A stretch of DNA of 26,691 nucleotides from contig JADZBT010000136.1 in the NCBI GenBank assembly GCA_020851915.1, positions 1 through 26,691 on the forward strand, read 5' to 3'. Below are positions 2,070 to 14,181 of this stretch, piece after piece (the stretch's first letter is position 1; each line of letters opens with the position of its first letter). This stretch comes from Alphaproteobacteria bacterium. GTDB taxonomy: Bacteria > Pseudomonadota > Alphaproteobacteria > Rickettsiales > RI-342. The position numbers were made by a program, and so were the translations under genes. The notes beneath the pieces were generated by a model. It saw only the letters and a list, made by a program, of their open reading frames with translations, was not told where the DNA came from and ran no database searches.

Positions 2070-2684
2070 ATGTGGATGATGGTAGGGCTCGGCAACCCCG
2101 GCCCCGAATACACAGGACACAGGCATAATGCCGGATTCATGGCGGTGGAGGCGATAGCCCACCGCCATCGTTTTTCCGACTGGAAGCTGAAATTTCACGG
2201 CTCTCTGAGTGAAGGCCAGCTTGCCGGGGAGAAAACCCTGTTGCTCCGTCCGCTCACCTTTATGAACCGTTCCGGAACCTCCGTCGCCGAGGCCGCGAAT
2301 TTTTATAAGATACCGCCGGAGCGTATTGTCGTGTTTCACGATGAACTCGATCTGGTTCCGGGAAAGATCCGCGTGAAACTGGGCGGCGGCAATGGCGGGC
2401 ATAACGGGCTCAAAAGTATCGACGCGCATCTGGGCGGCGACTACTGGCGGGTGCGTATCGGCATCGGACATCCGGGCGATAAGGATCGCGTGACGGGCTA
2501 TGTGCTGAATAATTTTTCACGCGAGGAAATAGAGCCTGCGGGGAAGCTCCTTGATGTGATGGCGGAGCTTGCGCCGCTGCTGGTGGAAGGAAAGGCGGAG
2601 GCATTCGCCAGTGAAACGGCGCGGCTGACGCAGCCGGTGAGGGAAAAAGTGGCCAGAGTTCAGAGTCCAGAGTCCAGTGAATAA
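2070..2684 (+). CDS. pth: Peptidyl-tRNA hydrolase
   Basis: VGLGNPG, RHNAGF, FMNRSG, HDELD, GHNGLKSI, RVRIGIGHP. Confidence 0.98.
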   Translation: MWMMVGLGNPGPEYTGHRHNAGFMAVEAIAHRHRFSDWKLKFHGSLSEGQLAGEKTLLLRPLTFMNRSGTSVAEAANFYKIPPERIVVFHDELDLVPGKIRVKLGGGNGGHNGLKSIDAHLGGDYWRVRIGIGHPGDKDRVTGYVLNNFSREEIEPAGKLLDVMAELAPLLVEGKAEAFASETARLTQPVREKVARVQSPESSE

Positions 2685-2729
2685 TGAACATACACTGAAC
2701 TCTGGAGTCTGAACACCGGACTCTGAATT
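2654..2729. repeat. Inverted heptamer tandem array A (CAGAGTY family)
   Basis: Left arm cagagtt cagagtc cagagtc cagtgaa (2654-2681); right arm ctgaact ctggagt ctgaaca ccggact ctgaatt (2695-2729), the degenerate reverse complement. Confidence 0.85.
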
Positions 2730-2758
2730 CGAATTACTGAACGAAGAAGGAAGAAAAA

Positions 2759-3859
2759 ATGGGATTCAACTGCGGCATCGTCGGCATGCCGAACGTCGGG
2801 AAATCGACGCTGTTCAATGCGCTATCGAGCACTCAGGCGGCGGAGGCGGCGAATTATCCGTTCTGCACCATCGAACCCAACACGGGCCGTGTGGCGGTTC
2901 CCGATGCGCGGCTGAATAAGGTCGCGGTCATCGCCGGTTCCGCGCAGATCATCCCGACGCAGCTCGAATTCGTCGATATCGCCGGCCTCGTGCGCGGCGC
3001 CAGCAAGGGCGAGGGATTGGGCAACCAGTTCCTGTCGCATATCCGCGAGGTCGACGCGGTGGCGATGGTGCTGCGTTGCTTCGAGGATGGTGACGTGACC
3101 CATGTGGAGGGCAGCATCGATCCCATGCGCGATGCGGAGATCATCGAAACGGAGCTGGTGCTGGCGGATCTGGAGAGCGTCGAAAAGCGCCTGCCGAACC
3201 TGCAGAAAAAGGCCAAGGGCAACGACAAGGACGCCAAGGCGCAGGCCGCGATACTGGAAAAAGTGCAGGCGGTGCTGGCGGAGGGAAAACCTGCGCGCCT
3301 TACCGATATCTCGGTGGAGGAGCGCCCGATGTTCCGGCAGTTGCAGCTGCTCACCGCGAAGCCGGTGATGTATGTGTGCAATGTGGAGGAATCTTCCGCC
3401 GCCACCGGCAATGCGCTGTCGGAGAAGGTGGCTGCCAAGGCGAAGGCCGAGGGTGCGGCCTGCGTGGTCGTCTCGGCCAAGATCGAGGCGGAAGTGGCGA
3501 TGCTCGAATCGCCCGAGGAGAAACAGGAATTCCTCAATGATCTGGGGCTGAAGGAAACCGGCCTCGCCCGCGTCATCCATTCGGGATACGGGCTGCTTGA
3601 CCTCGTGACCTTCTTCACCGTGGGGCCGAAGGAAGCGCGCGCCTGGACGGTGCATAAGGGCGCGACCGCGCCGAATGCGGCGGGCGCCATCCATACCGAT
3701 TTCGAGAAGGGCTTCATACGCGCCGAAACGATAGCCTATGACGATTTCATCGCCTGCAACGGCGAGCAGGGCGCAAAAGAAGCCGGAAAATTGCGACTGG
3801 AAGGAAAAGAGTATATCGTGAAGGACGGAGATATTTTCCACTTCAGATTTAATGTGTAG
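2759..3859 (+). CDS. ychF: Redox-regulated ATPase YchF (OBG family)
   Basis: [59 protein letters not shown], and C-terminal FRFNV. Confidence 0.98.
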
Positions 3860-3869
3860 AAAGAAAGAG

Positions 3870-3938
3870 AGAGTTCAGAGTCCAGAGTTCAGAGTTTAGT
3901 AAAAATGTCTGAACTCTGGACTCTGGACTCTGAACTCT
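3870..3938. repeat. Inverted heptamer tandem array B (AGAGTYC family)
   Basis: agagttc agagtcc agagttc agagttt (3870-3897), 13-nt loop, gaactct ggactct ggactct gaactct (3911-3938). Confidence 0.92.
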
Positions 3939-3959
3939 AATAACCAAGAGAGAACCCCG

Positions 3960-13097: not shown

Positions 13098-13156
13098 GGG
13101 AGAGTCGAGAGTCGTGGAGACAAGGCGTTTCCCGAGTCACGCGAGTTTCATTACGT

Positions 13157-13290
13157 GTTTACATCGATAGATCTGGCCCCTCACCCTAACCCTCTCCCTA
13201 TGGGAGAGGGGATAAGAAAGCCCCTTCTCCCATAGGGAGAAGGCGGGGGATGAGGGGCCTGCGGGCGCGGTGGTGCAGGAGCCAACCCCA
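13157..13290. repeat. BoxC/REP-like doublet, right copy, with conserved flanks
   Basis: Core 13175-13261 is nearly identical in direct orientation to 11113-11197. gtttacatcgatagatc (13157-13173) is the reverse complement of 11197-11213 at 16/17 positions. Confidence 0.92.
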
Positions 13291-13304
13291 AAGATCTCTA
13301 ACCA

Positions 13305-14093
13305 CTAAACCCCCAACACATCCCGCATGGAATAGAGGCCGGGGGCTTTGCCTTCGCTCCATAGGGCCGCGCGTAAAGCGCCTCGGGCGAAGATGGAGCG
13401 GTTGGAGGCCCTGTGTGTGAGTTCGATGCACTCGCCGTCGGCCATGAAGGCGACCGTGTGCTCGCCCACCGCATCACCCGCGCGCCGTACGGAGAAGCCG
13501 ATGGCGCCCGGCTTCCGGCGACCGGTACGGTCGAGTGCCATGACCTCATCGAACTCCACGCCACGGCCCTTCGCCGCCGCGCGCCCCAGCGCCAATGCCG
13601 TGCCTGAGGGGGCGTCGACCTTCTGGCGGTGATGGAGGTCGGAGATCTCGATGTCGAAGCTCTCGTTGAGGATGCCCGCCAGCTGCGCGGTGATGCCCAG
13701 CAGCAGGTTCACCCCGACGCTCATGTTGGGGGCGTGGACGATAGCGATCTTCTTGGCATGCGCGGCAAGCTGCTGTTCCTGCTCCGGCGTGAAGCCGGTC
13801 GTGCCGGTGATGAACGGTACGCCGATCTCCGCCGCGATGCCCGCGCAGGCGATGCTCATCGTGGGCTCAGTGAAATCCACCACCGCATCGCTCTTGGTCA
13901 CCAGCGGCAGCAGCTCGGAGGTGATGGCCACACCCAGCGGCGTACCGCCGAACAGCACGCCGATATCGCGATCCACCGCCGGATGCCCGCGACGCGTCAT
14001 GGCGGCCGCCACGGCGATCTCCGGATGCGCGAAGGCCTCGCGCACCACCGCCTGGCCCATGCGGCCCGTACAACCCGTAATACCGATTTTCAT
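13305..14093 (-). CDS. dapB: 4-hydroxy-tetrahydrodipicolinate reductase
   Basis: GCTGRMG, DFT, GTTG, APNMSVGVN, HHRQKVDAPSGTA, GEHTV, FARGALRAA. Confidence 0.98.
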   Translation of the reverse strand: MKIGITGCTGRMGQAVVREAFAHPEIAVAAAMTRRGHPAVDRDIGVLFGGTPLGVAITSELLPLVTKSDAVVDFTEPTMSIACAGIAAEIGVPFITGTTGFTPEQEQQLAAHAKKIAIVHAPNMSVGVNLLLGITAQLAGILNESFDIEISDLHHRQKVDAPSGTALALGRAAAKGRGVEFDEVMALDRTGRRKPGAIGFSVRRAGDAVGEHTVAFMADGECIELTHRASNRSIFARGALRAALWSEGKAPGLYSMRDVLGV

Positions 14094-14107
14094 GGAGGGC
14101 TCCGTCC

Positions 14108-14181
14108 TAGAGATTAGAAGCTAGAAATTAGATGATAGAACCATACTATTCTAATTTCCAATTTCCAATTTCTAAATTCTA
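14108..14181. repeat. Inverted heptamer tandem array D (TAGAAAT family)
   Basis: tagagat tagaagc tagaaat tagatga tagaacc (14108-14142), 4-nt loop, tattcta atttcca atttcca atttcta aattcta (14147-14181). Confidence 0.92.

Follow-up and report, generated by a model that had tools for sequence, protein, structure and literature searches.

We found that four arrays at gene junctions of a 26,691-nt stretch of DNA (the window) from an alphaproteobacterial MAG (assembly 81.5% complete; G000) are, in our judgement, probably gene-less ('solo') members of a family of heptamer hairpins, the full form of which is a cassette with a PF05635 gene. The complete element would consist of a 120–150-aa PF05635 gene between two inverted arrays of three to six heptamers. 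PF05635 is the S23p, or 23S-rRNA intervening-sequence, protein, an Avd-like four-helix bundle; the family was first known from inside ribosomal-RNA intervening sequences (IVSs).

The window arrays were located with Tandem Repeats Finder, their arms were paired by an inverted-repeat scan, and the sequences were then read directly (Table 1). The preliminary description had reported inverted arrays of 7-bp units at four junctions, and all four are where it placed them; the sense-strand RNAs fold into long stems, with z between −2.8 and −10.8 (computed against 200 dinucleotide shuffles), and each terminal inverted repeat forms a stem of at least about 20 bp. Hairpin A comprises about 3.6 AGAGTYC units (2653–2682), a loop of about 7–13 nt and about 5 complementary units (2690–2730). 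Pth ends in residues encoded by this left arm (...VARVQSPESSE), and the stop codon of its gene (TGA, 2682–2684) falls at the loop. Hairpin B is built of 4 + 4.4 units (AGAGTYC/GRACTCT), which form a 30-bp stem with two G·U pairs around a 9-nt AT-rich loop (−54.4 kcal/mol); its first base lies 10 nt past the ychF stop and its last base 21 nt short of the next start codon. In hairpin C, which is weaker than the other three, degenerate YTAGGNN/YTGGGNN units are followed by a loop of about 38–45 nt and then by a complementary array that is shorter; the unit outermost in this right arm contains the comM stop codon (9078–9080). In the AT-rich hairpin D each arm has about 5 units (TAGARNN/NNYTCTA); the array starts at a distance of 14 nt from the start of dapB (14093), and the dnaJ stop codon (14179–14181) is inside its last unit. 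There is no PF05635 ORF between the arms of A–D, whose loops measure 7–45 nt, and, in agreement with the preliminary description, the window encodes no candidate gene. Comparison with Rfam matched no family. When four other sludge metagenomes were compared with the window, short contigs (150–480 nt, depth 2–6) matched parts of A and of D with at most one difference, so that these are not an artefact of a single-sample assembly.

Table 1. Heptamer features of the window and the PF05635 gene of contig C10, which lies outside it.
Feature	Position	Strand	Context	Method	Period-7/14 arrays (Tandem Repeats Finder)	Arm pairing (inverted-repeat scan)	Fold z
Hairpin A	2653..2730	.	pth/ychF junction	Tandem Repeats Finder, inverted-repeat scan, fold	2653-2677 + 2695-2727	22 nt, 82%	-5.5
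Hairpin B	3870..3938	.	ychF/aminotransferase junction	Tandem Repeats Finder, inverted-repeat scan, fold	3870-3896 + 3908-3938	30 nt, 93%	-10.8
Hairpin C	8963..9082	.	245-aa ORF (8173-8910, -)/comM (9078-10586, -)	Repeats, fold	8963-9002 + 9066-9080	29 nt, 72%	-2.8
Hairpin D	14107..14181	.	dapB/dnaJ junction	Tandem Repeats Finder, inverted-repeat scan, fold	14107-14140 + 14149-14181	25 nt, 80%	-4.3
Two exact GAGAGTC units	13100..13114	+	Immediately past histidine-kinase stop (13097)				
PF05635 gene	C10:18166-18480	-	Contig C10	Pfam match, E 1.5e-38			

We compared period-7 repetition across the genome with chance expectation. Period-7 arrays that reach 28 nt or more number 34 in the genome, against 0–1 in three Markov-4 simulations. 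Intergenic DNA (175 kb) contains 37 period-7 arrays and coding DNA (1.3 Mb) 13, and periods of 5, 6, 8, 9 and 10 nt give only 0–4 intergenic arrays each. Among the inverted repeats whose arms measure 18 nt or more, 126 in all, 17 had a dominant period, and it was 7 every time. Strict thresholds gave 22 heptamer hairpins in 1.47 Mb, and looser ones give more; the genome has multicopy, intergenic, convergent heptamer arrays on opposite strands, of the Xanthomonas/Geobacter type. The flanking genes, identified with Pfam, are co-directional at all four window junctions, as described earlier, but this placement does not extend to the genome as a preference: of the 22 strict hairpins, 16 lie at tandem junctions, 4 at convergent and 2 at divergent ones, against 792, 185 and 171 among all intergenic regions.

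The grammar of the element is fixed: the 5′ arm reads (N-AG-NNNN)n and is complemented by the 3′ arm, which makes both DNA strands read alike. AG stands at a fixed phase in the 5′ arm of 18 of 19 hairpins, and the AG-phased arm has a polarity of 18:1 among solo hairpins and of 26:1 among the arms of cassettes. It had been proposed that period and inversion are conserved, and not sequence. Both are indeed kept while unit sequences vary between copies and lineages, but the AG phase is equally constant, and polarity and an AGAGTYN unit family are kept as well. The loops of the solo hairpins are unrelated to one another and share no full-length consensus. CcrM methylation sites (GANTC) were considered as the reason for GAGTC units; GANTC is lacking in most unit families, and the idea was therefore dropped.

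Stable stems shortly past stop codons could be intrinsic terminators, or else attenuators, of the genes that precede them, periodic by chance, and heptamer arms in this genome surround, besides REP-like palindromes, one canonical intrinsic terminator (C133). We rejected this explanation as very improbable, however, given that a T-tract follows only 2 of 20 hairpins, that the G+C content of the stems is 0.48 versus 0.60 for the genome, that most hairpins lie a few bases upstream of the next operon gene's start codon, and that they show no preference for convergent junctions, in contrast to non-periodic inverted repeats.

A search for four-helix-bundle ORFs between such arms, which the preliminary description had suggested, was positive in this genome, across the order and in other phyla. 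On contig C10 a gene for a 134-aa PF05635 protein is flanked by the inverted arms TTAGTGGTTAGAGTTTAGAGTCCAGT and ACTGGACTCTAAACTCTAATCACTGGACTCT; these read AGTGGTT-AGAGTTT-AGAGTCC ... complement, and are of the same kind as the window arms. The cassette is set between two ordinary co-directional genes, and at a distance of 1.3 kb there is a solo hairpin that shares its units. The gene in this cassette is the sole PF05635 copy found in the genome (tblastn with 31 family proteins).

Within the order, inverted arms surround 30 of 31 PF05635 genes, each from a different genome, within tens of bases of both ends, whereas 0 of 60 off-set controls had them (score threshold 12; best control 10.5). 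The period was 7 nt in 23 cases and 8 nt in 2. Arms were also found at 19 of 25 PF05635 genes in a phylum-wide sample, and at 6 of 6 from Bacteroidota, Gammaproteobacteria, Verrucomicrobiota, Acidobacteriota, Syntrophales and one further genome. Conversely, (AGAGTYN)x3 occurs in 34 of 300 other genomes of the order versus 1 of 398 in the remaining class, with a reversed-pattern control near zero, and the unit family is spread over 12 families of the order. PF05635 is present in 30 of 35 genomes with (AGAGTYN)x3 (G000 included) versus 65 of 266 without (p = 2e-12), and the two co-occur at the level of families as well (11/12 versus 7/27); five genomes carry the array with no PF05635 detected. 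In six genomes (G189, G076, G084, G254, G200 and G219) the array directly adjoins the PF05635 gene. In G039 and G129, where the cassette arms are AGGATTC, (GGATTCN)x3 has 69 and 20 matches, versus none in G189. A general law by which arm units match solo arrays genome by genome was tried and rejected, as several cassette-rich genomes carry different arms. Taken together, the arms of the C10 cassette, those across the order and other phyla, and the co-occurrence of arrays with PF05635 lead us to read the window arrays as ORF-less stems of the IVS type.

Comparison of orthologous junctions, also proposed in the preliminary description, bears on how the arrays arose. Neither a close relative nor a further assembly of the species is available in databases (the exact YchF is not on record, the best match being 80% identical); among 18 relatives in which pth and ychF are adjacent, the genes overlap by 11 nt in five, including the nearest relative and a genome of the same family. 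A spacer of 74–82 nt was found only in G000 and G021, with a heptamer hairpin in both, though of differing units. As the ancestral state is an overlap of 11 nt, the spacer in G000 is a gain, and the window arrays were probably inserted.

This history also weighs against the hairpins being ordinary simple sequence repeats (SSRs), in which slippage favours 7-nt units, intrastrand template switching perfects the hairpins, and proximity to PF05635 reflects a shared preference for intergenic DNA. Long bacterial SSRs over-represent heptamers, according to work cited in PMC4692102, Coxiella strains differ in unit number (PMC4990558), the units are unlike between copies, and we found neither target duplications nor, in the 81.5%-complete assembly, an enzyme. 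Slippage, however, had no spacer to act upon at the ancestral pth/ychF junction, and it would not explain an AGAGTYN unit family that recurs across 12 families of a single order, versus 1 of 398 genomes outside it, the fixed AG phase and polarity, or the arms beside both ends of nearly all PF05635 genes but of no control. We consider the SSR explanation quite unlikely.

Alternatively, each heptamer could bind one protein, on DNA or RNA (a global regulator, a cold-shock-type protein or a PF05635 pentamer), and the arrays regulate their neighbours. The constant AG phase suggests sequence-specific recognition, and cassette arms and solo arrays of one genome share unit families. Precedents are the Geobacter arrays of paired hepta- and octanucleotides, which were annotated as sites for a global regulator (PMC2700814), and heptamer repeats bound by CspB, one protein to each unit, as reviewed in PMC4679880. 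Yet the flanking genes (pth, ychF, dnaJ, dapB, comM) are functionally unrelated, the units vary widely inside one genome, and the five array-bearing genomes noted above have no detected PF05635, which makes a role as binding sites unlikely.

We therefore return to solo hairpins and PF05635 cassettes as one family. A single common origin, as first proposed, is likely, and of the sources then offered, the leftover flanks of a small mobile gene cassette fit the evidence. The solo hairpins may derive from the cassette, or have spread together with it, as insertions in tolerated intergenic gaps. Decayed PF05635 remnants were found neither in the loops of solo hairpins nor, in relatives, at the junctions of ychF and dnaJ; since there is also only one copy of the gene in the genome, the hairpins could instead have come first and taken up the gene as cargo, as an alternative to solos descending from full cassettes. 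The enclosure of REP-like palindromes and of an intrinsic terminator by such arms likewise speaks against the cassette reading. A bolder proposal is that the solo hairpins are non-autonomous copies of a mobile cassette, put in transcribed gaps by the PF05635 protein together with an unrecognised polymerase or nuclease, and that the heptamer excess of other bacteria (STRR, TAACTGA, GGGAATC, Geobacter) is largely its footprint; we hold this to be doubtful, if conceivable. A flanking direct repeat of at least 4 nt, as expected of a target-site duplication, was seen at 0 of 22 hairpins (null 7.7%), and neither a reverse transcriptase (PF00078) nor a RAYT/Y1 transposase (PF01797) gave a match in the 81.5%-complete assembly.

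At the RNA level, where the preliminary description had suggested a possible role in mRNA processing or stability, RNase III might cut the 20–36-bp stems within operon transcripts, by analogy with the homologous stems of 23S rRNA IVSs, which would uncouple adjacent cistrons at a small cost to the host. An RNase III gene was not found in the assembly at its 81.5% completeness, and 8 of 8 relatives have one. Sense-strand G·U pairs showed no excess over A·C mismatches (8 versus 12), and hence no signal of selection on the RNA. Slippage may alter the number of units, as it appears to have done between Coxiella strains.

The closest known counterpart is the IVS of 23S rRNA (Leptospira; Coxiella, PMC4990558). 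In helix 45 of Coxiella burnetii it carries an S23p ORF, RNase III cuts its 28-bp stem, and its tandem heptamers number 2–3, depending on the strain (PMC4990558). The IVS and our elements have in common a long terminal inverted repeat with a stem of 20–30 bp, a variable number of tandem heptamers in the stem region and, in the full-length form of G000 and its order, a PF05635 gene between the arms, as well as a proposed selfish and formerly mobile character. In contrast to the IVS, the window hairpins lie between protein-coding genes and not in an rRNA helix, and have no ORF; excision by RNase III is shown for the IVS and would be an extrapolation for them. The preliminary description had called the arrays a candidate undescribed repeat system. 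This does not stand: besides these stem heptamers of an S23p-bearing IVS, gene-less inverted heptamer arrays are published for Xanthomonas (PMC4692102) and Geobacter (PMC2700814).

The GGGAATC arrays of Xanthomonas, inverted, gene-less and between genes, and the GGGGAYT arrays of Nostoc (PMC4692102) resemble ours in their strong intergenic excess; they form 70–75 convergent, stem-loop-capable pairs per genome, mostly transcribed, and occupy the same junctions in related species with varying lengths. Taxon and units differ, and those arrays were read as G-quadruplex formers, with no link to a gene family drawn in that paper, whereas most G000 units have no G-tract (AGAGTYC and TAGAAAT lack a G3–4 tract, and only hairpin C has some GGG/GGGG). 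The gene-less arrays of Geobacter metallireducens (PMC2700814) are likewise paired on opposite strands, with three to five tandem units of 7 or 8 nt at variable distance and tens of copies per genome; they have other units, were taken as global-regulator sites, and came with no reported link to a gene. Cyanobacterial STRR and Beggiatoaceae TAACTGA repeats (PMC4679880) are also intergenic tandem heptamers, patchy across phyla and often ending immediately before a start codon, and TAACTGA read on the opposite strand is AGTTATC, a unit also present in cassette arm L149. Those repeats are nearly always direct, with an inverted partner in 1 of 170 sets in BOGUAY, and STRR have a few fixed sequences, whereas the G000 arrays, from an alphaproteobacterial MAG, are inverted pairs of many unit sequences. 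REP/BIME and MITEs are short, palindromic, multicopy intergenic repeats too, often within operons, but internal 7-nt periodicity is a feature of neither. Unlike MITEs, the hairpins lack target duplications and have unrelated loops; unlike REPs with RAYT, they have no single consensus palindrome and no Y1 transposase was found in the incomplete G000 assembly; and in contrast to diversity-generating retroelements (Avd with reverse transcriptase), PF00078 is not detected in that assembly and the neighbours of the C10 cassette are ordinary genes.

Heptamer tandem repeats have been noted as unexplained oddities since 1990 and read as regulator sites, G-quadruplexes or slippage products, and we know of no function or origin for 23S rRNA IVSs and their S23p gene. 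If solo hairpins belong with the gene-bearing cassettes in one family, both puzzles merge into one testable question, that of the action of the Avd-like protein on its arms, of cutting by RNase III in operon transcripts and of the spread of the elements. Two cautions for annotation follow: heptamer hairpins can contribute C-terminal tails as well as stop codons (here for pth, comM and dnaJ), and they are not to be labelled terminators.

Two minor features of the window may be added. The pair of GAGAGTC units (Table 1), for which no inverted partner was found, is possibly the leftover single arm of an AGAGTCG unit family. A separate REP-like family (CCCTCTCCCTATGGGAGAGGG) is also present in the window.

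The four inverted heptamer arrays of the window, A–D, were recovered where the preliminary description had placed them, by both Tandem Repeats Finder and an inverted-repeat scan, and fold as long stems (see table). Their sequences were inspected directly, and flanking genes were assigned by Pfam. Pth takes its C-terminal residues from the left arm of A, with the pth stop codon (2682-2684) at the loop, and C and D each have a stop codon in their outermost unit, that of comM and that of dnaJ, respectively.

Coordinates of hairpins, cassette, cargo and unrelated repeats (window positions unless a contig of the source genome, C-number, is given)
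Feature	Position	Context	Support
Hairpin A	2653-2730	pth/ychF junction	Both scans; sense-strand fold z -5.5
Hairpin B	3870-3938	ychF/class I/II aminotransferase junction	Both scans; 30-bp stem, -54 kcal/mol, z -10.8
Hairpin C	8963-9082	245-aa ORF/comM junction	Both scans; z -2.8
Hairpin D	14107-14181	dapB/dnaJ junction	Both scans; z -4.3
PF05635 gene	C10:18166-18480 (-)	Between two same-strand genes	E 1.5e-38
Heptamer arms	C142:10625-10758	Enclosing a REP-like G+C-rich palindrome	
Heptamer arms	C178:6868-6995	Enclosing a REP-like G+C-rich palindrome	
Heptamer arms	C133:16395-16495	Enclosing a canonical intrinsic terminator between convergent genes	
G+C-rich palindrome doublets	11111-11197, 13175-13261	Around histidine-kinase gene	
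G+C-rich palindrome	22135-22233		
Period-7 run	14960-15009	dnaJ coding sequence	

The source is a metagenome-assembled genome of 1.47 Mb (191 contigs, 60% G+C, 81.5% complete), whose DnaJ relatives are uncultured Alphaproteobacteria; genomes of its order are small (0.7-3.3 Mb), with 29-61% G+C at the loci sampled. Sequencing runs matching the window came from wastewater and activated sludge, and the organism is present at a depth of 2-6 in the metagenomes that hold it. We found no same-species assembly, the nearest known relative having a YchF 80% identical. Genome-wide, 34 period-7 arrays reach 28 nt or more, against 0-1 in Markov-4 simulations. Intergenic DNA held 37 period-7 arrays in 175 kb and coding DNA 13 in 1.3 Mb, as divided by our own gene calls (88% coding), while intergenic arrays of periods 5, 6, 8, 9 and 10 numbered 0-4. 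Inverted repeats with arms of 18 nt or more numbered 126; 17 of them were periodic, all with period 7. A stricter intergenic scan listed 22 heptamer hairpins, and looser listings suggest a total of about 30. They fill their spacers tightly, often a few bases from stop and start codons. Their unit families include AGAGTCC/AGAGTTC/AGAGTCG, TTAGTCC/TTAGTCG, TAGGCAT, CAGGTTT and GTAATTC; the unit AGTGGTT is often the outermost of its array. No comparable arrays were seen in 541 kb of dnaJ surroundings from 80 other Alphaproteobacteria.

The proposed enrichment at co-directional junctions did not hold genome-wide: 16 hairpins lay in tandem, 4 in convergent and 2 in divergent intergenic regions, versus 792, 185 and 171 such regions overall. 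Nor are the hairpins intrinsic terminators, with a T-tract in just 2 of 20 and a stem G+C of 0.48. They matched no Rfam family, and no direct repeats were found flanking them. Stem mismatches on the sense strand comprised 8 G.U and 12 A.C pairs; this lack of G.U bias offers no evidence that pairing is maintained for the sense transcript in particular.

The arrays are associated with genes of PF05635, the S23p/23S-rRNA intervening-sequence family of Avd-like four-helix bundles. Among 300 other genomes of the order, 34 from about a dozen families contain the triple unit (AGAGTYN)x3, whose unit family is that of hairpins A and B; the four same-family genomes searched all lack it. Outside the order, the class has it in 1 of 398 genomes (p = 2e-12), and a reversed-pattern control was almost empty within the order. 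At one such locus (L117, genome G084) two inverted arrays 390 nt apart surround an ORF starting MVDKVQSYRDLQVWQKA. The source genome itself has exactly one PF05635 gene, with TTAGTGGTTAGAGTTTAGAGTCCAGT upstream of its ATG and ACTGGACTCTAAACTCTAATCACTGGACTCT past its stop. The units of these arms recur in hairpins A and B as well as in a gene-less (solo) hairpin at a distance of 1.3 kb on contig C10. Small four-helix-bundle ORFs between arms, which the preliminary description had proposed to look for, were thus found in the same genome, in the order and in other groups.

Within the order, 95 of 301 genomes encode PF05635: 30 of the 35 showing the AGAGTYN pattern and 65 of the 266 lacking it (odds ratio 18.6, p = 2e-12). 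Since related genomes are not independent, the family-level figure is safer (11/12 versus 7/27, p = 2.5e-4). By coordinates, the pattern directly adjoins the PF05635 gene in six genomes. Taking 31 PF05635 genes, each from a separate genome of the order, we found 30 flanked by an inverted repeat (score threshold >=12); 60 off-set controls scored at most 10.5. The arms have a clear 7-nt period in 23 and an 8-nt period in 2. In a phylum-wide sample, arms occurred at 19 of 25 genes (period 7 in 15, period 8 in 3); among them are (GTAGGCA)n stems that pair perfectly over 41-48 bp. All six homologues examined from other groups (52-58% identity; Chryseobacterium, Methylomarinum, Verrucomicrobiales, Terriglobales, Syntrophales and one 6.5-Mb genome) have heptamer arrays on one side or on both and lie between co-directional genes. 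Those of Methylomarinum, Syntrophales and the 6.5-Mb genome immediately follow an N6_N4_Mtase gene and lie upstream of AAA_15/SLFN-AlbA_2/HATPase genes, that is, in restriction-modification or defence-type operons; PF05635 genes have been noted within cas loci (PMC3936711).

Two genomes with AGGATTC cassette arms have 69 and 20 (GGATTCN)x3 matches, and one AGAGTYN-rich genome has none. Solo hairpins and cassettes share one polarity, AG standing at a fixed phase of the 5' arm in 18 of 19 decided solo hairpins and 26 of 27 decided cassette arms. Five cassette loci have arms of 8-nt period (TAAGGGAT, AGTAGGGC, AGTAGGGG), so the period is not strictly fixed in the family.

The pth/ychF junction records a gain. 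Among 18 relatives keeping the pair adjacent, the genes overlap by 11 nt in five, including the nearest known relative and one same-family genome, and most other spacers are 0-29 nt. A heptamer hairpin fills the spacer only in the source genome (74 nt, AGAGTYC units) and in one relative (82 nt, AGTGCTG/AGTTTTG units). These are independent gains, because the compact junction offered nothing to expand from. The ancestral pth stop, which in relatives overlaps ychF codons 3-4 (ATGGGATTTAA), has been lost in the source genome, where positions 2759-2770 now read ATGGGATTCAA.

Of the origins put forward in the preliminary description, flanks of a small gene cassette are the best-supported reading for the window's arrays, and we consider it moderately likely. 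Solo hairpins held no recognisable PF05635 remnant, so their descent from full cassettes stays a proposal. Heptamer arms also enclose other cargo (see table), with stems up to a perfect 36 bp. These cases fit an entry of cargo into hairpin loops equally well; the loops may be hot spots for insertion, or arms can form around hairpins already present. We infer that the hairpin elements are mobile. By analogy with homologous rRNA elements, they might be cleaved by RNase III (PMC4990558). Reverse transcriptase, Y1 transposase and RNase III were not found in the 81.5%-complete assembly; RNase III is present in 8 of 8 relatives.

The arrays had been described as a candidate undescribed system, a label that published cases do not support. 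In Xanthomonas, each genome has 70-75 pairs of gene-less inverted heptamer arrays, which were interpreted as forming G-quadruplexes (PMC4692102), and Geobacter metallireducens has paired hepta- and octanucleotide arrays, read as regulator sites (PMC2700814), the octanucleotide ones of which may be the same 8-nt variant. In cyanobacteria and Beggiatoaceae, heptamer arrays of the direct type have been described (PMC4679880). In the Coxiella 23S rRNA intervening sequence, RNase III cuts a 28-bp stem that encloses an S23p gene; tandem heptamers number two or three, varying by strain, and a mobile origin has been discussed (PMC4990558). Our literature search found no publication joining the four-helix-bundle protein and heptamer repeats. 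Our data add to this on the gene-less elements: one genome has 22 or more solo hairpins and one cassette, the two share a unit family and polarity, arrays and gene co-occur at the level of the order, and a gain is seen at one junction.

Two other repeats of the window are unrelated to the heptamer hairpins. The run in dnaJ is G+C-rich (CCGCGCC, 5.6 copies, with indels), is followed by (CGC)5 and probably encodes a Gly-rich linker; sequencing reads appear cut there. The palindrome doublets (CCCTCTCCCTATGGGAGAGGG ... CCTTCTCCCATAGGGAGAAGG) belong to a G+C-rich family; a search of the assembly for a Y1/RAYT transposase found none. Sludge metagenomes show many loose ends starting at window positions 13178/13212, which suggests that several organisms carry this palindrome in multiple copies.
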